Below, one piece after another: positions 1-31,542 of a stretch of 31,542 nucleotides of DNA; position 1 is the first letter of the stretch; the number at the start of each line of letters is the position of its first letter. The position numbers were made by a program, and so were the translations under genes. Under the pieces are notes generated by a model. It ran no database searches. It was not told the DNA's origin and worked only from the letters and a program-made list of their open reading frames with translations. Source of the stretch: a virus (lineage: Duplodnaviria > Heunggongvirae > Uroviricota > Caudoviricetes). Location of the stretch: positions 1 to 31,542 of IMG/VR virus record IMGVR_UViG_2711768060_000013. One strand, given 5' to 3'.

Positions 1-147
1 CTCCTGCCATACCTGCTTCCCCGTTTTATCGCTGTCTGTCGGTGTCGCGGTATAGGGTACATATTCCTCCATATCGTCAAATAATATTTCGCAATTTATC
101 GCCCCGTGTTCAAGGCTGACAGGATTTTTTATATCTGTAATGTTCAT
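1..147 (-). CDS. 5'-partial ORF (49 codons, MNITDIKNPVSLEHGAINCEILFDDMEEYVPYTATPTDSDKTGKQVWQE, runs off window start); possible tail-fibre assembly chaperone or other distal tail gene
   Basis: ATG at 145-147 overlaps the TAA stop of the upstream fibre gene (TAATG on minus strand); frame open to position 1; position after a fibre gene suggests a chaperone but the sequence itself is not recognised. Confidence 0.4.
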   Translation of the reverse strand, partial: MNITDIKNPVSLEHGAINCEILFDDMEEYVPYTATPTDSDKTGKQVWQE

Positions 148-2318
148 TAACGATACCTTATAAATATTCCCAGAATATAATCACTCGTTTTCAGCCACGG
201 ATAGGAGGTCAGACTCCAGTAATATCCGGGAAACGTATGTTCCTCTTTAATATGAAGAGTCTGTTCGCCACTTTCATCGACTGTAATTATATATGGCTTC
301 AGAAGTGAACCACTTAAAGCATCACCTCGCTTCAGGGTGTATCCTCCGGGCTTATCCTGATAACGAAATGCCGCCTGAACAATACCGCCAGCCTCCGGTG
401 ATGCATTCAGCCCGTTGGAATAAACTGTACCGGACAAAAAATCAATTAATTCCTTATCAGTTCGTCTCCAGAGTTCCCATGCCGGGACACCAGAAGTGCC
501 ACGGGCGTAATAAACCTCTCCATTAACACCGTAAAAAAAATAAATCTTTTTTACGCCGTTAGTTGTACCTGCTAAATTTGAAGCCCAGATAATTTCAAGA
601 ATTCCACTGAATAGTACTTTTGGTATCACTATGTCGGGGTTTGCATAAACCAGATAACGCCCCGGTTTTGCGTCTCTTATCCAGGAATCAAATTCGGCTC
701 TGGTGTCAAAGCTAATCCTGTCATTAATATGAAAAATTTCACCAAAACCCAGTGCCCCCGGTATCGCCAGTCGGCCTTCTGTCCGGTCGTAAATATCACT
801 CTGTGGCTCCATTGTGGCGGCGCTTTTCAGCTCCAGTACTGTTCGCATGGCTTCCGGCGTTTCCTGCGCCAGCAGTGAGCGTCCCTTTTCTGACAGGGGC
901 GCAAGGGAGACGTATTCATCTGTGTCAAAGTACGGAAGCGTGTCAGCACGTTGTGTCAGGTTGCTGAGTGCCGTTAACACATCACTGAGTGGTTGTTTAC
1001 CCGCCAGCGCGTTAGTGACGGTTGTCGCAAAGTTCGGGTCATTGCCCAGCGCCGCCGCCAGTTCGTTCAGCGTGTCAAGGGCTTCGGGAGATGAATCCAC
1101 CAGTGCAGCGAGCAGTTTGCGGACAAACGCCGCATTAGCTATTTCAGTGCCTGCTGCATCATCTGGCGGTGTTGGCGCTGTCGGCGTTCCGGTCAGTGCC
1201 GGGCTGTTTAGTGGCGCGCGGGTTTCAATCAGTGCCCTGAGTGAAGCCTCGTTGACCTTCAGGTTCTCCCAACCAACCAGATAACCACCACTGGCAGTCC
1301 AGTAACGGTTGTAATAAACATGGCCGTTAATGCCATAGAAAATAATGATTTTAGGTATATATACCGGACTGGGATTGTGCTGATATTCTGGCCAGATAAT
1401 GTCAACAGTACCACTGAACAGCACACCCTGTATTACCACATTTGTACGTGCATAAACGGTATAGCGTCCGGGGTTTGCCCTTTTTACCCACAGTAGAAAA
1501 TCAGCCTCTGTTTCAAACTCTGTCCTGTCGTCATAGGAAAATATTTTCCCGAATCCGAACATGCCGGGAACCGCCAGTCGGCCTTCTGTCCGGTCATAAA
1601 TATCACTCTGTGGCTCCATTGTAGCGGCGCTTTTCAGTCCCAGATTATCGCGGGATTCCTGTTGCGCCTCTTCGCCTTCTGCCGCAATTTCTGACAGGTG
1701 GTTAGCCGTTTTGAGTGTCGCTGATAATGCGGTATCAATCTCATCCCTGGCCTGCTCCGCATCAGATGCGGCCTTTCTGGCAGCTTCAGCATCCTGCCTG
1801 ACCTCTTCGGCGGTATCCTCAATCTGAGAGGCCAGAATTTCGACCTGTTTTTTGTCTTCGGCAACGGCCTCTGCGTTCTGCTGTACGTTATCCGCCAGCG
1901 TCTCGCAGTCGCTCTTAATTTGTTGCGCATCAGCGACATGTTGCCCGGCCTGTCGTTCGCTTTCCGCTGCCGCTTCCGCGCTCTGCTGCGCCTGTTGAGC
2001 CAGTTCCTCGAATTTCTTCAGAGCTTCCGGGCGCAGGTCAATATCGGTTGCGCCCAGAAAATCATTCAGCGAACCGTCCGTTGAATCTTCATAAACGCGG
2101 ATGACACCGATTTCTGAAAGGCGCTGTGTGCTTTGTGTCAGGCGAACGCTGTACACACCCGGCAGAACGGGGAAGTCATATTCCCCGTTCTGTGTGGTGA
2201 CATGGCTGAAAACACTTTTCAGAATTCCTGCACGGTTGTGCAGGGAGGTCAGTGTAATGGTTGCGCCGCCCAGCGGTTCTCCCGTGGGCGTTTTAATCAC
2301 ACCTTTAAGCTGCGGCAT
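147..2318 (-). CDS. side tail fibre protein, 723 aa, lambdoid Stf-type N-terminal domain plus P2 gpH/Stf-like collar, internally duplicated module
   Basis: ORF track; N-terminus (VYEDS..GSLNDFLGA..RPEALKKFE) resembles the Stf-family N-terminal domain; Ala/Glu-rich coiled coil; APLNSPALTGTPT..ALVDSSPEALDTLNELAAALGNDPNF block typical of P2 H / Stf fibres; ATG at 2316-2318 with GGAG 8 nt upstream. Confidence 0.85.
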   Translation of the reverse strand: MPQLKGVIKTPTGEPLGGATITLTSLHNRAGILKSVFSHVTTQNGEYDFPVLPGVYSVRLTQSTQRLSEIGVIRVYEDSTDGSLNDFLGATDIDLRPEALKKFEELAQQAQQSAEAAAESERQAGQHVADAQQIKSDCETLADNVQQNAEAVAEDKKQVEILASQIEDTAEEVRQDAEAARKAASDAEQARDEIDTALSATLKTANHLSEIAAEGEEAQQESRDNLGLKSAATMEPQSDIYDRTEGRLAVPGMFGFGKIFSYDDRTEFETEADFLLWVKRANPGRYTVYARTNVVIQGVLFSGTVDIIWPEYQHNPSPVYIPKIIIFYGINGHVYYNRYWTASGGYLVGWENLKVNEASLRALIETRAPLNSPALTGTPTAPTPPDDAAGTEIANAAFVRKLLAALVDSSPEALDTLNELAAALGNDPNFATTVTNALAGKQPLSDVLTALSNLTQRADTLPYFDTDEYVSLAPLSEKGRSLLAQETPEAMRTVLELKSAATMEPQSDIYDRTEGRLAIPGALGFGEIFHINDRISFDTRAEFDSWIRDAKPGRYLVYANPDIVIPKVLFSGILEIIWASNLAGTTNGVKKIYFFYGVNGEVYYARGTSGVPAWELWRRTDKELIDFLSGTVYSNGLNASPEAGGIVQAAFRYQDKPGGYTLKRGDALSGSLLKPYIITVDESGEQTLHIKEEHTFPGYYWSLTSYPWLKTSDYILGIFIRYR

Positions 2319-2835
2319 CGGGACGCTCCGGCCAGTTGATGGAGTAAAAGGAGGCTTCGTCAGTAACGGTGCTTAAATCCAGTGCCTTTACCGCTTTGAT
2401 ATATGCCATCCACTGCGTAAGACGGGCTTTATCATCGTCGCTGATGGTGCCCAGCTCCAGCTCGGTTTTCCAGTCGGAGGTGATGTCCTTTGCTTCATTC
2501 AGCAGGCGCTGGCGTTGTTTTTCTGATAATCGTGGGTAATCAACAGGAACCGGCAGCACTTCGCCGTCTTTGTAATACCAGCTGGCTTCAATGCCAAAAC
2601 CTTCCGGCAGTTCATCCACTTCCACAATGGTAAAACCAACGGGATAAAGACGGGACACGTCTTCTGCCATTGAATAAATCACGCCGGATTCCGGGTGAAC
2701 ACACAATTTGTATTTCTTCGTGAATTTATCCAGTGATTCATAAAAATCCTGTCCGTCTTCACTGCGGAAATACTGAATGTTTTCACCATAAGGCATCTCT
2801 TCCAGGTAATAACGCGAGACGTTTCTGAGTTCCAT
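2305..2835 (-). CDS. tail fibre assembly protein (Tfa/U-like chaperone)
   Basis: C-terminal motif (ARLTQWMAYIKAVKALDLS...INWPERP) typical of Tfa family; start moved to ATG at 2833-2835, which has a perfect AAGGAG 7 nt upstream (the track start at 2871 overlaps the previous gene); follows a fibre gene. Confidence 0.8.
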   Translation of the reverse strand: MELRNVSRYYLEEMPYGENIQYFRSEDGQDFYESLDKFTKKYKLCVHPESGVIYSMAEDVSRLYPVGFTIVEVDELPEGFGIEASWYYKDGEVLPVPVDYPRLSEKQRQRLLNEAKDITSDWKTELELGTISDDDKARLTQWMAYIKAVKALDLSTVTDEASFYSINWPERPDAAA

Positions 2836-2849
2836 TATTTTCTCCTTAA

Positions 2850-3845
2850 TTAGCCGGATACCGTGCGCCATCCGCCATTGATATAAATCTGAGTTTGTTT
2901 GTAATACACGCCGCCGATGTTATCCGCAGAGCTCCTGCCAGTATCCTGAACGTTAATACCTGACAAAATACAACCTGAAGGCGCGCGAAATACCCAGGAA
3001 ATTTCGTTACCTCCGGGATTGTGAAACACTTCGCTGGTATATCTGAAATCACGCACAGCGCCGGAATCGGTGCTGCTGATGGTGATATCGCGGGTACCAT
3101 CAAATGCCGTACCGTTAATTTTGCGTGGGGTCTGTAGTTTGGTGGCGGTTGCTGCGTTGAAGCTGTCTTTTGATGTATACACCTGTGCCCATTCGGACCA
3201 GCTGGCATCTGCAGAATCACGTCTTGAACGGATATAAACCGGGGCATGCGCTCCACTCGTACCACTCCAGCCAATCAGCAGTTCACCTTCGCCTGATGCT
3301 GTCGCGCCTTTCAGGTGCAGAACATTGCCATAAGTGATGGGGTAGCCGTTGTTGTACGCTTCATACATCTGCAGCCCTGCATTGCCCTGTGCTGTGCCGC
3401 TTAATGCCGTCATCCGTCCTTTTGATAAAAGGGTGTCCGGTGACAGGCCAATTGCTTTAATAAATTCGCTGGCTGTGGTTTTCCCGAGAATACCGCGCAC
3501 AAAAGCACTGAGCGGCGTTAATGCCATTGTGTCTTCGCCCGTAAAATACGGGAACGTATTATTCTGACCGGTTAATCCGGCAATAGCTCCGGCTGAACCA
3601 CTGTTCGTAATAAACAGTTTTTTCAGCGCCGTCATAATCTGGTCGGTGGTGTTTTTATCCGGTTTGATATTTGCCTGCCGGAGAATTTCCAGCAGTTCGG
3701 ACTGAATAATATTAAACCAGTCCGGCCCCGGATAGGTGGGCGGAATACCATTCCCGCCTTCGGTGAAATAAAGCGTTGTTTTGCTTAATTCAGCCGCGAC
3801 AGGTGGCATTACCGGCACACCCGTCGGATTATCCACATGAAACAT
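2850..3845 (-). CDS. tail fibre protein (Mu S-like position), 331 aa
   Basis: ORF track; position directly after the baseplate genes; C-terminal ATKLQTPRKINGTAFDGTRDITIS and SWSEWAQVYTSKD motifs shared with Stf-type fibres. Confidence 0.8.
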   Translation of the reverse strand: MFHVDNPTGVPVMPPVAAELSKTTLYFTEGGNGIPPTYPGPDWFNIIQSELLEILRQANIKPDKNTTDQIMTALKKLFITNSGSAGAIAGLTGQNNTFPYFTGEDTMALTPLSAFVRGILGKTTASEFIKAIGLSPDTLLSKGRMTALSGTAQGNAGLQMYEAYNNGYPITYGNVLHLKGATASGEGELLIGWSGTSGAHAPVYIRSRRDSADASWSEWAQVYTSKDSFNAATATKLQTPRKINGTAFDGTRDITISSTDSGAVRDFRYTSEVFHNPGGNEISWVFRAPSGCILSGINVQDTGRSSADNIGGVYYKQTQIYINGGWRTVSG

Positions 3846-3848
3846 AAA

Positions 3849-4433
3849 TTATTCTCCGGTGTAATAATATTCATATTCCGTGCCCGCCAGTCGGTAATGC
3901 TTCAGCAGGCATTCCAGCTCGCGGGTCCGTTCGCTGATTAATGGCGTCATGACGTCATCAATACAGGTAAACCGTCCGGCATCTTTATCCGGGACTTCCA
4001 CTTTCAGCAGCCAGCGATACCGGGCCGGATACAGCGGATACATACAGTCACGCAGGCAGTGGTGCGGCAGAATGGCCGTCACCTTAATGGTGAAGCCCAG
4101 CGCCGCCGCTGCGGCTTCAATCTGCCAGGTTGCCAGCCCGCCTTTGCGGCGGTATTTCTCCACCACGGCCCGGCGGCGGGCTTCCGTTGTGGTGGCGGCA
4201 ATTCCGCATTCCGGCAGCGCCAGATATTGCTCCCACTCCGGCAGCAGCTGTAGCGTGGTTTCCGGGCGCATCTCCACATGCAGTCGCGAGGCGTCGTATT
4301 CAACGCGGGTTAAACGCTCTGCAAGCGCCCTTAAAAAACGGTTTAAATCTGCATCGTTATCACGCGGCCATGCCTTACCCCGTGGCATGACCTGTTGCAG
4401 TGCGGTCAGCCATTCCGTCACGCTGTGAGCCAT
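3849..4433 (-). CDS. baseplate/tail protein, Mu gp48-like (DUF2313, YmfQ-like)
   Basis: ORF track, 194 aa, synteny between the baseplate J-like gene and the fibre gene. Confidence 0.75.
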   Translation of the reverse strand: MAHSVTEWLTALQQVMPRGKAWPRDNDADLNRFLRALAERLTRVEYDASRLHVEMRPETTLQLLPEWEQYLALPECGIAATTTEARRRAVVEKYRRKGGLATWQIEAAAAALGFTIKVTAILPHHCLRDCMYPLYPARYRWLLKVEVPDKDAGRFTCIDDVMTPLISERTRELECLLKHYRLAGTEYEYYYTGE

Positions 4434-5494
4434 GTCACCTCCCCGATGGTAATAAGCTCATCCACATCACTGGTGGTGTCTTCCCCGATGTTCAGGAAGT
4501 AGTCCGCAATGCCGGACGTCATACCGATGGCCGTGCGCAGCGAGGACACCGGCAGCATCTGACCGGGGGCCAGCGTTTTCTGTAATGCGGTCAGGTTTGC
4601 CCGGACGGCGTTCCTGTTCGCCTGGCTGTCCGGTGTCAGACGGATGGACAGATCGACTTTCTTCAGCCTGACCTGTACCGGCCAGACCTCGATGCCGCCC
4701 GGTTTGCCCACCATCACGCCGGTGGCCGGGTGTTTGTGACAGAACAGATACTGCTCCATTGTCTTCAGGTCTTCGCGGGTCGGCACAATGTCTTCACGGT
4801 CATCATAAAGCCATGCCAGCCCGACCGTGCCGGGGCCGTGCCATGCATCCCACGCCCACGCGCGGCTGACGCCCGGCACTTCACGCGCCCATATCACGTA
4901 GTCATGCAGTGCACCGCCCACCGGGGGATTACGGCGCACATACAGCAGACGGTCCAGCAGCTCTGCGATGGATTCGATATCTGCGCCACCGGTGATGCCA
5001 CTTTCAGTCACCGCGCCGGTGCTGCCCGTTCCGGGTAGCGGGGACAACAGAGTGAGCACGGCACCGGCAGCAAGATTGCCCGCCACACCGGCTTCTTCAG
5101 CCTGCACGATGACGGTGACCTCGCCGTCCTGTACCTCGCCGGATGTGAGCACCTGATACACCTGATTCGTGTCGGACTGCATCCGGGTTTCTGCCGGGAG
5201 GGGAGACTGACTGGTGAAGGTCACCGGCCCGCTGGCAAAGGTGGCCTGCTTGCGGATAACCCCTTCATACGTTGCCGTTTTAATAATGGTTTCATCATCA
5301 GACGCGGTGGACGGAATAATCTGGTCTTTAATCCAGCTCTGATGGTCGTATAAATCCCGAACCTGACTGCTGAATGACACGTTCAGCGCCTGCTCAACAC
5401 TGACAGGCGGCAGCTTTTGCAGGCCGAGTTCATACGCAATATCTTTTTCGCCGTCGGCAATCAGTTTGCCCAGCGTGGGGATTTCATACGGCAT
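4418..5494 (-). CDS. baseplate J-like protein, Mu gp47-like
   Basis: ORF track; start moved to ATG at 5492-5494 with GGGAGG 9 nt upstream (track start at 5527 overlaps the upstream gene by 44 nt); synteny. Confidence 0.8.
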   Translation of the reverse strand: MPYEIPTLGKLIADGEKDIAYELGLQKLPPVSVEQALNVSFSSQVRDLYDHQSWIKDQIIPSTASDDETIIKTATYEGVIRKQATFASGPVTFTSQSPLPAETRMQSDTNQVYQVLTSGEVQDGEVTVIVQAEEAGVAGNLAAGAVLTLLSPLPGTGSTGAVTESGITGGADIESIAELLDRLLYVRRNPPVGGALHDYVIWAREVPGVSRAWAWDAWHGPGTVGLAWLYDDREDIVPTREDLKTMEQYLFCHKHPATGVMVGKPGGIEVWPVQVRLKKVDLSIRLTPDSQANRNAVRANLTALQKTLAPGQMLPVSSLRTAIGMTSGIADYFLNIGEDTTSDVDELITIGEVTWLTA

Positions 5495-5936
5495 TAATGG
5501 TGGCCTCCCATCGGCGGGTGATTTCAATTGTGAGCGTGGTTTTGTCCGGGCGGGTTAACACCACCTGAAAGGCAATACGGTCAGGGACGATGATTCTGGC
5601 CGTGACGGTGGCGTTACGGGCGTAACCGGCCCGCAGCAGCGGTTGCATGGACAACCGCGCGTAATCTTCCACACGCAGGCGGACATCTTCCGTCAGCTTT
5701 TCACGCTCAAGCAGCCACAGGCGGGAACCCCACGAAAAATCGCTGTACGTGTCGCCCGGCCAGCCGCGCGGGTCGCCAGAGCCGTCAGGAATGACATCAT
5801 CGTCATCAGCACGGGCATCGGTGAAAAGGCAGATAAGAACCTGAGTGACCAGCCCCTCATCCAGTGAGAGGCCGTTATGGGTGACGGTGATGTCACCCCG
5901 TGAGAGCATGTTATTCCAGCGGATTCCTGTCGTCAT
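5484..5936 (-). CDS. baseplate protein, Mu gp46-like (GP46 / T4 gp25-like family)
   Basis: ORF track, 150 aa, ATGA overlap with the upstream gene, synteny. Confidence 0.8.
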   Translation of the reverse strand: MTTGIRWNNMLSRGDITVTHNGLSLDEGLVTQVLICLFTDARADDDDVIPDGSGDPRGWPGDTYSDFSWGSRLWLLEREKLTEDVRLRVEDYARLSMQPLLRAGYARNATVTARIIVPDRIAFQVVLTRPDKTTLTIEITRRWEATINAV

Positions 5937-6469
5937 ACGGGCGGTGATGTATTCTCATTGTCGCCGTCCCTATGAGTGTGTTTGATGAAAGATTTGCCGT
6001 TGATGGTGACATCTTCAGTAAATTCACAGGGACCGACGAATTTCATTTGTTTACCGATAATATTCAGCAATTCGTCGGCGGTGAGATTTACCGTTTTCCC
6101 TGAAACGTTTAATTGTTCTCCTGTGATTTCAATAATTCCGCCTTTCTTTAACGTGATATGTGATTTGCCGTCCTGGTGATACAGCCGGACGTCGCCGGGG
6201 GACAGACCTTTAGGGCGACATCGCTTGTCCTCCACCGCGATGGCAACCAGCCCGTCACGCCGTCCGCCAACGGCCAGCACAATAGCTTCAGAACCTTCCG
6301 GCGGAACGGAAGTAAACCCGTAGTTCTGGAAGCGTTCCACGTCGTCGTCAGTGGCATCTGCCAGCGTCTGGATTTGCAGGTTCTGCCGCTCCAGACTGTC
6401 AGACACCATGCGGACAATGGCACGGTCAACCAGCAGCCGCAGACGGCGGGCAATGGCGTTTAATCCCAT
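5933..6469 (-). CDS. baseplate spike/assembly protein, Mu gp45-like (gpV-like)
   Basis: ORF track, 178 aa, recognised gp45-family sequence, synteny. Confidence 0.8.
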   Translation of the reverse strand: MGLNAIARRLRLLVDRAIVRMVSDSLERQNLQIQTLADATDDDVERFQNYGFTSVPPEGSEAIVLAVGGRRDGLVAIAVEDKRCRPKGLSPGDVRLYHQDGKSHITLKKGGIIEITGEQLNVSGKTVNLTADELLNIIGKQMKFVGPCEFTEDVTINGKSFIKHTHRDGDNENTSPPV

Positions 6470-7533: not shown

Positions 7534-8807
7534 CAGTCGGTAATCTCCACAGGTTGCGTTGGCAGTATGAATGACGGATGGCGCAGGCGGTTACGCTGCA
7601 CGATTTCATCCCGTCGGCTTGTGTCACCATGTTCGCGCCATGCCAGCAATGCGGCAGATGTGGTTGTGGTCAGCGTCACCTGCCGGGTTTCCGGCAGACG
7701 GGCGGCACGCTCGCGGGCATCCGTAATCACGGCCTGCCGTAAATCGCGCAGCGTTCGCCACAATGCCCGCTGGTTATTTTCCACCGCCGCCACCGCCTGC
7801 TCATGCAGTTCAGCCGCCAGCGTGTCACCGGCAGATAATGCCGCATCACTGGTATCGAACGTCATCGAGGCCACGGCATTTGCCTGTCCCAGCAGGGTTT
7901 CCAGCACAACCACCTGGCGGAAGTCGTCAATGTTCTTCTGCAGGCTGTCAGACACCGGCTGATAATCCGGTGACAGCCCGATGGCAAAGCCAATTTCGCC
8001 GTCTGCCACGCTGCCTGGCTTCACGGTGATATCTTCCGGCAGTGCGCCGGTGGCAACCTGTCGGGCGCGTTCTCCGGCCCACTGGTTGCGTAATGTCGTG
8101 TAAACCGCCAGTGCTTCGGGTGGTTCCGTCACCAGATCAACCACGCCGTCGATGAACGAGGACAACTCACTGACCAGACGTCCCGGCGTGGCAATAATGG
8201 TTCCGACCATCTCCTTAAAATGGTTCAGCCTGTCCATCCACTGATTCAGTGCTGCCGGTAGCGTGGGCAGGTTAGCCACAAAGTTTTCCATATCGGACAG
8301 AAAGCTGTCGGCCATCTCACCCAGCCCGTCAAGTGCGCCGAACCAGTCGCCACCGTCAATGGCCGCTTTTACCGCATCAATACCCGTCAGCACTTCCTGC
8401 TGCGTGTTATCCGCCGCAGACGGGAACAGGCGCTCGCCTGCCTCAAACACTTCAAAGGTGACATACGCAATGCCGTCTTCCTCCGTGCTGAGGCGATGGG
8501 TGACCTTGCCAACCTGTACGGTCTGTATCCCGAACCACGGGTGAATAAGCTCGCCGGGGCCGGGGGTATTAAGCGCGTCTAAAAGGGCGTTTAAATCAGC
8601 CTGGAAGTTTTTACCTGGCAGCTTTGCGTTAATCTGCTGTTGCCCCGGAACGGCCCCGTTATCATCCGTCCAGGCGGTTTCGCGCCGGGGATACGCACGG
8701 GGAATGGCACGACGGCCACCGGTGCCTTCCGTATCCACCAGAAAGAAGGGGACGCCACGAAACGAGGCGTCGCGCAGCCCGTCCCATTTGCCTTTGCTTG
8801 TTGTCAT
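7533..8807 (-). CDS. N: DNA circularisation protein N-like (Mu gp43)
   Basis: ORF track, 424 aa, N-terminus MTTSKGKWDGLRDASFRGVPFF recognised as this family; immediately follows the tape measure gene. Confidence 0.8.
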   Translation of the reverse strand: MTTSKGKWDGLRDASFRGVPFFLVDTEGTGGRRAIPRAYPRRETAWTDDNGAVPGQQQINAKLPGKNFQADLNALLDALNTPGPGELIHPWFGIQTVQVGKVTHRLSTEEDGIAYVTFEVFEAGERLFPSAADNTQQEVLTGIDAVKAAIDGGDWFGALDGLGEMADSFLSDMENFVANLPTLPAALNQWMDRLNHFKEMVGTIIATPGRLVSELSSFIDGVVDLVTEPPEALAVYTTLRNQWAGERARQVATGALPEDITVKPGSVADGEIGFAIGLSPDYQPVSDSLQKNIDDFRQVVVLETLLGQANAVASMTFDTSDAALSAGDTLAAELHEQAVAAVENNQRALWRTLRDLRQAVITDARERAARLPETRQVTLTTTTSAALLAWREHGDTSRRDEIVQRNRLRHPSFILPTQPVEITD

Positions 8808-28567: not shown

Positions 28568-29506
28568 TTACGTGCGCAGCAGGGTTGAAATATCAACGTC
28601 CAGGTCTAATTCACGGAAAGCCTGACGCAGATAATCTTCATTAACACGTTCACCTTTACCGTGGGCGGTCATGGCAGCAAGGCGCAGCGAGTGGTTCAGG
28701 ATGCGAAGCGCACCTGGCTTTTGTGCAATCTGCTGTAATAATTCCCGCTCGTTTTCGCCGGTAATTTGCCAGGCATCCGCAATGGCTTTTACATCATCAA
28801 TTTTGGTTTTATTGATTGCCGTCCGTTTGGCAATACGGGAAAACAGGCGGGCAAATTCAACCGTTCTGTTACCACCGGTCATGTTTGAATAAACACGGTG
28901 ATTCCCCATCAGAACAAGGCCAATACGGGCGGACTCCTGTAACAGGCGGAGTTCTTCCAGAACCTCAGCGCCAAGATGATCAGCTTCGTCGATAATGACC
29001 AGCCCCTGCGTACCTTCAAGACGGCGTCTCAAAGCGCGGGAGAGTGGCCCCTTACGGCGTGGTGCGTCATTCATTCCCAGTTCATAAGCCAGTTCAGTCA
29101 GGCATTCCAGAACACTGGCACAGGATGGGGTAATGGTGATCATCCAGACATTGTTATTGGTGCGACGAAATTCGCGGGCCGCTTCAGTTTTTCCCACACC
29201 TGGATTACCGCAGATAACAGAAATACTTTCAGTCAGGCTGGCAAAACGCATACTCGTCCAGATTTGGCGTGCTGTTCTGGTTTCCACAAAACGTGGTGGT
29301 TCTGGCAGCTCTGCGGCACGGTGATAGTTCTCCAGCCAGCGTTCCAGCGTCTGCGCAACACGTTCATTGTCGCCGTTGTACTTGTTATTCACGAATGCGC
29401 TTAACGTTCCTGCGGCCACGCCAGACTCGCGTGCAATTTGTGCATAAGTCGCTTTTTCACTTTCTACAAGCGTGCGCAGTCCTGCGCGAATATCGGAAAT
29501 ATTCAT
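28568..29506 (-). CDS. B: transposition ATPase / target DNA activator B (MuB)
   Basis: ORF track, 312 aa, recognised as near-identical to MuB ([15 protein letters not shown]..., Walker motifs [17 protein letters not shown]). Confidence 0.95.
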
Positions 29507-29544: not shown

Positions 29545-31542
29545 TTAAATGGCTTTTTTACGTCTGTTCTGTTCCAGAATATCCAGCGAATGATTCAGAT
29601 ATTCATCACGATCAGTTTCATATTCATCATCGGGTTCCTGGTATTTCACCTGCACCGTGTTACCGGAAGGCCGGAAAATACCAACAACCCTTGATTCTGG
29701 CGCTGCTGGTTCGGCTATCTGCGGCAGCAGTTCAGCAACTTCCAGCGCGTCCATTTGCTTCTGCGCCTTAATGGCTGCTTTAGTTGCAGATTTCAGTTGT
29801 TTCTGGCGGCGGCGATATTCGCGGCCTGCCGCAGCATCATTAAATGCAACAGGTGCCAGACATTCCGCTTCACAGATAAACCGACCGTCCAGGGTGTAAC
29901 AATAAACCGTGCTGTGTAACTGCTGTGGATCAAACCTGACCACAACTTTTTTCACATTGGCATTCATTAACGCCATGTTGTAATAAACGTTTTTCGCGCC
30001 TTTAAGGGAGCCGCCAACTTTAAGCGTAAACTCGCCTTTGCGTGAAACGTTCACCGCCTCGGCAGGCAGTAACAGCATCCGTTTTTGTTCTTCGGTTGGC
30101 TTACGCACAATCGTTCTGGCGTATTCACGCTCGAAAACATCATCAAACGAGAGTTTGCCCCCGCACATTTCTGTTTCACGGCCTGTTCTGGCATTGAACA
30201 TCGCCACACCTTCGGCAAGGGTTTTCAGAAACAGCTCTGCATCAACAGCGCGGTCGCCATAGTTATCAGGTTTTGCCTGCGGATTTGGCCCCGTATATGC
30301 ACCAGCCAGTGCCGGATGCTTATCAACGTATTCCTCAAGCCCACCAACACCGAAAGCACGTTCAACAGGTTTTGCCTGGCCCCAGCCTTTACCGGCAACA
30401 ACGCTTGTCCAGTGCATTTTCGCGCCCATCAGTAAAAACAGCCCTTTTGGATCGTCCTCTTTTACCTTAAAGCGGTAGCGATTGGGCGCGCCTCCCGTCA
30501 GCCATTTATTCGCAGCACCACGGGTGTTATCAATGGTGATGTGAAAATCCTCCGGGATACCGTAGCGAGTCACAACATCCATGAACGAGAGGCGAATTGA
30601 ATCGATGTTCTCACTGACATCGCAGCGCCAGCCCAAAATTTTTCGGGTTTTCACATCCTGCCAGAACCATGTTTTCGGGCGGATCACATCACCGTTAAAC
30701 CAGCGTACAAAGACGTTATGCAGATAACCGTCGCCGTTGATCCACTGCATGGCGTCCAGGTGTTCCACAGTTCGCTGCTGTGCCGGTATCAGATGCATCA
30801 GAGCATGTTCACCTTCACGGCAGGCAACAACCATTGCCTCGTCCAGTTGCTGAATCCGGCGAAAGGCCGTGGCACGGGAGGGAATACTCCAGCCATGCTC
30901 GCGGGCTGCCAGTTCCAGACGCTCATAACATTTGCGAAAGGCGGGTTTTTCCGGTCGCAGATAATCTGCAATCAGAAACTGCCAGGCATCCTCGTCAAAT
31001 TCACTTTTGTGAATGTTGCGACGGGATGCACCACGTCCATCAACAAGCGCAGCCGCCCAGTCAGGCTTCGCAAACTTCTGTACCTGGTAATATTTGTCTC
31101 GCAAAGTGGATGCGCTGACCTGGTAATGTCCTGCAACGGTCGCAAATGCCGTTTTTGTTGAAATCCCCTGGTTCAGCATTTCGTCTGCGGCCTGAACCGC
31201 AGGCAACCATTTTTCAGCAAGTTTGCGCTGGGAATCGCTGGCTTTATCCCATTTGCTCCACAGTGCCTCGCGATCGTAATCGTGGGCTTCCAGCGTGGGG
31301 CGGGCGATTTCAAAATACCCCTGGCTTGTTTCTATTTGCTCAGATTTTAATAACAACTCAGCACGTGCTGCCGCTGGTAGAACTGATATATGAAATTCCA
31401 AAGCCTTTGAACCCGTACGCTTGCGACGTAGTTCTGGATGATTGGCTGCAAGCTTTTCAAGATTGCGGCGAATACTCACCTCATGTTTAGGAAAGCATGA
31501 CATTCCTACGCATTCTTGCGCTGTTACCCAATGGGTTAACAT
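29545..31542 (-). CDS. A: DDE transposase A (MuA), 665 codons; ATG at 31540-31542 is at the window edge so the true start may lie beyond the window
   Basis: ORF track; from about residue 77 onward the sequence is recognised as essentially MuA; the first ~75 residues differ from my recollection of Mu. Confidence 0.95.

Follow-up and report, generated by a model that had tools for sequence, protein, structure and literature searches.

The stretch of DNA analysed here, referred to as the window (31,542 nucleotides; IMG/VR record IMGVR_UViG_2711768060_000013), is a Mu-like transposable prophage that reads along the minus strand, and the genes at its fibre end, all of them on that strand, form two consecutive pairs of a tail fibre and a putative assembly chaperone. 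All coordinates given below refer to the window. Directly behind homologues of the Mu baseplate proteins gp47 (PF04865) and gp48 (PF10076), the open reading frame (ORF) map places a gene for a fibre of 331 residues (fibre 1; 2850-3845), which combines a Mu S-type anchor with a shaft resembling the variable part of the P1/P7 S protein (Sv) and a tip. It is followed by a gene for a U/Tfa-type assembly chaperone, which comprises 176 residues when read from M13 (2305-2835; PF02413) and whose ORF is open to position 2871 (188 residues). Then come an intact gene for a second fibre of 723 residues (fibre 2; 147-2318, stop codon included; PF08400) and the opening 49 codons of a gene for a fibre chaperone of the DUF4376 type (1-147). 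The latter gene is cut by the left edge of the window, which is the end of the source contig (CXYG01000018.1 of assembly GCA_001269325.1); sequence further to the left lies outside the data. We consider it very likely that these four genes encode two fibres and two chaperones. A preliminary description of this DNA had proposed two co-directional fibre/chaperone cassettes in series, with an S-like first fibre accompanied by its chaperone and a further ORF in chaperone position behind the second fibre, and the four minus-strand ORFs, together with the family assignments detailed below, bear out this arrangement.

The N-terminal 81 residues of fibre 1 match the N-terminus of Mu S (phmmer, PDB 5yvq/9ki1, E = 1.5e-20), and the protein aligns with Mu S at 36% identity (BLASTP, E = 1e-23) and matches phrog_1833 (E = 3e-113). 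Its shaft (residues ~127-260) shares 62-67% identity with the variable part of the S proteins of P1 and P7. Over the C-terminal ~90 residues, there is a weak alignment with the Mu S tip and another one, at E = 7e-14, with the short tail fibre of phiTE, and the tip itself (residues 259-331) is 77% identical to that of Rac-SA53 tail1. An orthologue in an Escherichia coli prophage (locus L001) is 97.6% identical to fibre 1. The adjacent chaperone contains the PF02413 domain (Caudo_TAP, E = 2.6e-20), matches phrog_136 (E = 1e-54) and shares 26% identity with Mu U (E = 6e-20) and 67% with Rac-SA53 tail2. Cryo-electron microscopy (cryo-EM) of Mu has revealed that the N-terminus of gp49 is anchored on a loop of the wedge protein gp48 (PMC11915804). 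The window encodes a Mu gp48/YmfQ-family baseplate wedge protein of 194 residues (3849-4433; PF10076 Phage_Mu_Gp48, E = 8e-32), which is 31% identical to Mu gp48 and lies next to the gene for the baseplate J/gp47 protein (4418-5527). By analogy with Mu, this protein would be the expected docking platform for fibre 1. The homology of the fibre 1 anchor, the presence of a gp48 homologue and the gp49-gp48 docking observed in Mu thus identify cassette 1 as a Mu-type baseplate fibre with its chaperone.

Fibre 2 has a different and composite architecture. Its 723-residue ORF contains no internal stop codon, and the protein matches phrog_2636 (E = 8e-198); the exact sequence is on record on one contig only. 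A phage_tail_N domain (PF08400, E = 1.2e-28) stands at its N-terminus, and a tblastn alignment with lambda stf spans residues 3-487. The first 90 residues (2049-2318) correspond to an Ig-like collar or anchor domain, called StfN, with residues 3-90 matching the solved N-terminal domain of lambda Stf (PDB 9e7m, E = 6e-9) and residues 3-196 matching the collar spike gp40 of Vibrio myophage XM1 (PDB 7kjk, chain residues 4-191, E = 3.5e-8). The Ala/Glu/Gln-rich rod that follows (residues ~95-225; 1644-2036) is covered up to residue 196 by the alignment to the helical stalk of XM1 gp40 and, by homology, presumably forms a trimeric coiled coil; residues 4-307, which include this rod, are 58% identical to phiP27 L56. 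Further downstream, a module of ~111 residues (X1; residues 228-338, 1305-1637) shares 59% protein identity with residues 497-606 (E = 1e-43), revealing an internal duplication whose two copies (1305-1637 and 501-830) have diverged at the DNA level. They flank a conserved segment of the type found in P2 H, P1 Sc and lambda Stf (residues ~365-480; 879-1226). Within this segment, megablast detects 89% DNA identity to P2 gene H at positions 991-1073 and 80-82% DNA identity to Sc of P1 and P7 in matches that lie within positions 988-1111; the segment also matches PDB 9d93 (E = 5e-11), phrog_8713 and phrog_7032. Fibre 2 therefore combines a lambdoid Stf-type N-terminus with a P2 H/P1 S-type segment and is not a Mu-type fibre, in line with its initial classification.

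The distal part of fibre 2 (residues 497-723; 150-830) consists of the second module copy (X2) and the tip, represents a rare allele and is presumed to be the receptor-binding region. Over its last 239 residues, it shares 32-44% identity with the C-terminal ends of E. coli fibres of 404-416 residues that carry a P2 H-type N-terminus (PF12571), which indicates that this tip module is common to fibres with different types of anchor. The GC content varies from 41% to 60% along the fibre region. Fibre 2 is one product of a very mosaic family, and the term 'chimera', first applied to this protein in particular, fits the family as a whole. Several partial homologues of the tip module are listed in NCBI/nr under the name 'shikimate transporter', a label that looks like a propagated misannotation of tail-fibre fragments.

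The 49-residue fragment encoded downstream of fibre 2 matches phrog_1141 (E = 6.5e-17) and, over its full length, is 49-55% identical to the N-termini of phiP27 L57, Rac-SA53 tail4 and the proteins of two E. coli prophages (L001 and L002). The positional orthologues from L001 and phiP27 (L57), the two proteins that were scanned, carry the PF14301 domain (DUF4376), and the one from L002 is annotated as a DUF4376 protein by the Prokaryotic Genome Annotation Pipeline (PGAP). Judging from these similarities, the fragment is probably the start of a DUF4376-type chaperone, whose C-terminal DUF4376 part would lie beyond the edge of the window. Experiments on Alteromonas phage V22 and on a Campylobacter prophage have shown that the DUF4376 proteins encoded there downstream of fibres are needed as chaperones, and the related gp9 protein of Alteromonas phage A5 is annotated as a DUF4376 chaperone. 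The C-terminal part of the DUF4376 protein is 75-91% identical among unrelated prophages, and the assembly breaks 147 nucleotides past the start of the gene; given this high conservation, a collapsed repeat is a likely cause of the contig break.

The tip of fibre 2 and the N-terminus of the adjoining chaperone diverge jointly from all E. coli relatives, and both are more divergent here than among the relatives themselves, a pattern that fits a cognate pair. Positions 1-760, which cover the tip of fibre 2 and the beginning of the DUF4376 gene, lack a DNA match among 5,426 complete E. coli genomes, also when searched in distant mode, and their GC content is 41-46%, as opposed to 56-65% in the baseplate genes. 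The remaining prophage is 93-97% identical to E. coli prophages. The terminal 760 nucleotides look like a recently imported module comprising a tip and its chaperone. It is this rare tip allele, together with the matching chaperone N-terminus, that is specific to the window.

The junctions between the four genes are tight. The stop codon of the first chaperone and the start of fibre 2 overlap by 14 nucleotides (2305-2318), and fibre 2 shares a TAATG motif (145-149) with the DUF4376-type ORF. Both overlaps had been noted at the outset, and the ORF map and the junction sequences show that they are real. The longest possible chaperone ORF (2305-2871) would, in addition, overlap fibre 1 by 22 nucleotides. 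An AGGAG motif, however, sits 6 nucleotides ahead of the internal ATG at position 2835 (M13), and a start at this site yields a protein of 176 residues, the length annotated for this chaperone in relatives. Both observations argue for a 14-nucleotide spacer between fibre 1 and the chaperone rather than an overlap. Shine-Dalgarno motifs precede all four starts, with GGAG or AAGG located 7-9 nucleotides ahead of fibre 1, fibre 2 (GGAG, 7 nucleotides upstream) and the DUF4376-type ORF. Scans of positions 1-6000 detected no sigma-70-like promoter on the coding strand, and terminator-like sites in the same interval were not more frequent than expected from shuffled sequence. The late promoters of Mu require the C activator, and a scan for sigma-70 promoters is therefore blind to late promoters of the Mu type. 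The junctions and the scans are consistent with, but do not prove, a single late transcript whose genes are translated in a coupled fashion.

In Mu, alternative fibres are selected by inverting the G segment, and the preliminary description had named an invertase with inverted crossover sites, or decay of fibre 2 into a pseudogene, as the findings that would speak against two serial, functional cassettes. Crossover sites of the Gin/Cin/Hin type were sought with a 26-bp consensus, which in Mu, serving as a positive control, recovered exactly the two gix sites at the boundaries of the G segment. This pattern was used instead of the P1 cix annotation (M81956), which coincides with a 222-bp repeat element and was of no help in placing the site. 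Neither the 31.5-kb window nor a stretch of 40 kb (L008) with a complete relative prophage yielded a gix/cix/hix-like site with this pattern. Similarly, tblastn searches with Mu Gin (E <= 10), again with Mu as a positive control, found no homologue in the window or in L001, L002, L004, L005 and L008; the one match in L006 (E = 9.6) was at the level of chance. The annotations of four relatives of the prophage list no invertase, and there are no long inverted repeats in positions 1-4500. With neither a Gin homologue nor crossover sites, and with the two cassettes pointing in the same direction, we rejected the idea that the fibre end is one orientation of an invertible segment; to the extent that the data reach, they support the absence of such a system. 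The possibility that this copy of fibre 2 is a pseudogene was likewise rejected on the basis of its intact ORF and its Shine-Dalgarno motif.

The closest complete relative, NZ_LR882057, contains the prophage inserted in fic, with the gene order c, ner, A, B ... gp47, gp48, fibre 1, Tfa, fibre 2, DUF4376, com, mom and host DNA, and three further relatives have the same prophage end, without an invertase. Gene order in these relatives thus places the fibre 2 cassette in the position that Mu devotes to U', S' and gin. The gp47-gp48 region of this lineage (at least 90% DNA identity) is present in 49-54 of the 5,426 complete E. coli genomes (~1%), and the genomes listed for it largely recur among those with matches over the junction of the chaperone and fibre 2. 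All four relatives of the lineage that were inspected keep the layout, with fibre 2 intact in two and degraded in the other two. The same order of four genes is also found in phiP27 (L54-L57), Rac-SA53 (tail1-4) and pPE4 (gp67-70), which have different backbones and represent two other baseplate types. The layout is consequently not new. Public phage genomes have included it since phiP27, and its annotation in E. coli prophages is a matter of routine, so that the novelty implied by the preliminary description does not stand. In the literature on the PF08400 domain, the phiP27 fibres and Mu-like phages without gin, we found no functional study of this cassette pair.

A genome-contig search with the N-terminus of fibre 2 returned a single locus (L009), which is no broad sample. 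Its tail module, located on a contig of a soil metagenome-assembled genome (MAG), comprises L, K, I, J, Lom, an StfN fibre and a DUF4376 protein, and the position of the last two genes behind J and Lom indicates that cassette 2 is a portable lambdoid side-fibre unit. Within this locus, positions 8262-11159 present an enterobacterial-looking lambdoid module (J, an Ail/Lom protein with E = 4e-119, the StfN fibre and the DUF4376 protein) in what is classified as a soil proteobacterial MAG, and the bin assignment may be wrong. At the opposite end of the window, the prophage encodes a MuA-type transposase (29545-31542) and a MuB protein (28568-29506). Exactly the same MuB sequence is present in many assemblies that, in addition, have genes for Gam, Mor, a portal of the Mu type and further Mu proteins. 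The identical protein occurs in 2,176 index blocks of public assemblies, and the insertion sites differ among the three places inspected, which suggests that the transposable backbone is very widespread and conserved, with variation at the fibre end. The locus L014 (NZ_CP086627, 4799-8577), from an E. coli clade of the same Mu-like lineage in which fibre 2 is reduced to 113 residues, encodes a gp48/YmfQ homologue extended to 324 residues and an additional hypothetical gene of 352 codons ahead of a shorter, 269-residue fibre 1.

Taken as a whole, these findings are best explained, with a probability that we put at roughly 0.6, by the joint production of two fibres, which have a chaperone apiece and occupy different sites on the virion, in an arrangement without a G-segment switch. 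In this model, the fibre genes would form the host-recognition end of the late operon. The N-terminal 81 residues of fibre 1 would dock on the gp48 wedge protein, as those of Mu gp49 do, and fibre 2 would use a second site through its N-terminal collar domain instead of the baseplate fibre socket, with the DUF4376 protein folding its tip. A virion built in this way would display two receptor specificities simultaneously, whereas Mu alternates by inversion. The joint production and assembly of the two fibres is the part of this model that we regard as reasonably probable; the attachment site and the receptor role are likewise inferred. The two anchors are unrelated, so that the fibres would not compete for the six gp48 sockets. 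There is precedent for two types of fibres on the baseplates of Mu-like or other myophages, as in Sf14 and phiTE. As for the second site, twelve Stf N-terminal domains ring the gpV/gpM junction of Ur-lambda and bear four trimeric fibres (PMC12617516), and in XM1 the head-completion and terminator rings of the neck carry eighteen gp40-type domains, each continuing into a coiled coil (PMC10457771). Since a sheathed tail exposes tube-like rings at the neck, this region is the most plausible site for fibre 2; by analogy, we tentatively place it there, at somewhat less than even odds. It is rather doubtful that the complete scenario applies, in which a lambdoid side-fibre cassette replaced the G-inversion switch and a neck-mounted fibre 2 gives each particle two specificities at two different heights. 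If true, a neck-mounted second fibre would occupy a position not described for Mu-like phages.

Several observations weigh against this model. Co-expression and co-assembly of the fibres are, in this phage as well as in its relatives, something that we infer. The window encodes a 203-residue protein in terminator position (13154-13765) and an adaptor of 145 residues (14304-14741). Searched by sequence against the PDB, its four head-tail joining proteins yield matches to Mu gp36 and a DUF1320 protein alone and not to XM1 gp4 or gp5, and with no XM1-like neck partners apparent by sequence, attachment at the neck rests on analogy. The published cryo-EM models of Mu contain no neck fibre, although Mu also lacks a counterpart of fibre 2 (PMC11915804). 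Moreover, the fold assignment of the fibre 2 tip is weak, and the DUF4376 gene is incomplete in the window. Finally, in one E. coli clade (RIVM), fibre 2 is a 113-residue N-terminal remnant that lies directly before com, without a DUF4376 gene, and in the relative L002 it is a truncated pseudogene, indicating that fibre 2 is dispensable for the maintenance of the prophage.

The failure to detect XM1-like neck proteins by sequence also lends some weight to the notion that fibre 2 is assembled at the baseplate end of the tail, either at the periphery of the wedges, at the base of the sheath or as a side arm of fibre 1 or of a chaperone retained on it, giving rise to a branched adsorption device. 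Such a location would agree with the position of the fibre 2 gene within the baseplate and fibre block, where it is directly coupled to the chaperone of fibre 1, and with the two fibre types that phiTE and Sf14 carry at the baseplate. However, the distal tube ring of a contractile tail is hidden by the sheath and the wedges, and the sole homologue solved in a myophage, XM1 gp40, binds to the neck (PMC10457771). In addition, fibre 1 varies freely, with that of phiP27 being unrelated except for a weak match at its tip, whereas the N-termini of fibre 2 are still 58% identical, which argues against docking on fibre 1. On balance, we consider a baseplate location of fibre 2 unlikely. Alternatively, fibre 2 and its chaperone could be passenger DNA that was acquired from a lambdoid prophage by recombination at shared conserved fibre segments, is not incorporated into Mu-like virions and is on its way to decay. 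Both the short remnant without DUF4376 gene in the RIVM clade and the pseudogene in L002 would be expected in this case, as would the strong mosaicism of the region, with its shuffled modules and GC values from 41% to 60%, and the internal duplication of fibre 2, which suggests illegitimate recombination. Yet the 723-residue ORF is intact, equipped with a Shine-Dalgarno motif and translationally coupled, and three different phage backbones, among them those of phages whose genomes were deposited as complete, keep the cassette in the same place after the primary fibre cassette. Moreover, an N-terminal anchor that remains 47-63% identical while the tips vary is the pattern of diversifying selection on host range, and the cognate chaperone co-varies with the tip. 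A passenger origin thus appears somewhat less likely still than attachment at the baseplate.

By far the least probable alternative is that the two fibres alternate after all, through a switch that is not linked to them, such as an invertase provided in trans by another prophage or regulated translation. Fibres do alternate in Mu, P1 and e14, and the conserved segment of fibre 2 is homologous to the Sc region that borders the invertible C segment of P1. However, inversion is unable to swap two co-directional cassettes, and the searches described above, with a pattern that recovers both Mu sites, uncovered neither crossover sites in the window or the 40-kb relative nor long inverted repeats in the first 4500 positions. 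Furthermore, the two fibres have different anchors, which makes the sharing of a single site unnecessary. Simultaneous production of both fibres, each folded by its own chaperone, remains the explanation that we favour.

Viewed in this way, close relatives have arrived at two different solutions: Mu inverts its fibre cassette, whereas the lineage described here carries two cassettes side by side, with different anchors. The pair of StfN fibre and DUF4376 chaperone is a portable unit that occurs on both siphovirus and myovirus tails, and the boundaries between its modules (anchor, rod, conserved segment and tip with cognate chaperone) may be of use for fibre engineering. The rare tip allele is the second point of practical value, which is otherwise limited. 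Since the arrangement itself is common and already annotated, interest centres on the docking site that a contractile tail of the Mu type would offer to an Stf-type collar domain.

The fibre end shares features with several known systems. It shares with the Mu G-segment region the type of genome (MuA/MuB, gp47 and gp48, with com and mom in the relatives), the S-type fibre anchor and a U-like chaperone, but it differs in that gin, the gix sites and the inverted alternative are missing and the space between U and com is occupied by a co-directional Stf-type fibre and a DUF4376 gene. The gene order corresponds to that of phiP27 L54-L57, Rac-SA53 tail1-tail4 and pPE4 gp67-gp70, which show the same succession of fibre, Tfa, StfN fibre and DUF4376 protein and whose fibre 2 N-termini are 47-58% identical to that of the window; the DUF4376 proteins of this group share 75-91% identity with one another. 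Differences concern the backbones (pPE4 with an integrase, Rac-SA53 with an attB site), fibre 1, the length of fibre 2 (490-1061 residues) and the tip allele. Rac-SA53 tail3 has the same module-segment-module order as fibre 2, whereas phiP27 L56 shares the N-terminal 225 residues and then continues with a single module and a tip, without the conserved segment; the fibre 1 protein of phiP27 is unrelated to that of the window apart from a weak match at the tip.

With Ur-lambda Stf/Tfa, cassette 2 has in common a homologous N-terminal collar domain, a rod, the conserved P2 H/Stf segment, a tip and a downstream chaperone. Unlike its Ur-lambda counterpart, however, it comes from a phage with a contractile tail, and fibre 2 follows a Mu-type S/U pair instead of the J and lom genes of a siphovirus module. 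The chaperone is of the DUF4376 type, as it is in the lambdoid locus L009 too, instead of a lambda Tfa, and the fibre 2 tip is unrelated to the OmpC-binding, gp37-like tip of Ur-lambda Stf. XM1 gp40, which likewise comes from a contractile-tailed phage, resembles fibre 2 in that its Ig-like N-terminal domain continues into a coiled coil (~100 residues), presumed from homology in fibre 2, but its C-terminal part is a tailspike, and its gene does not lie beside fibre genes. DUF4376 proteins are encoded immediately downstream of a fibre also in Alteromonas phage V22 (gp26/gp27) and the Campylobacter element CJIE1 (H-fibre), whose fibres are unrelated to those described here; in the window, the DUF4376 domain itself falls past the edge. 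Two adjacent fibre genes, finally, are also a feature of Sf14 (gp52/gp53), which has a simple Mu-like baseplate, and of phiTE (STF/LTF). In these phages, both fibres are displayed simultaneously and both at the baseplate, in Sf14 without chaperones, whereas the present system pairs each fibre with a chaperone and provides the second one with an anchor of the collar type.

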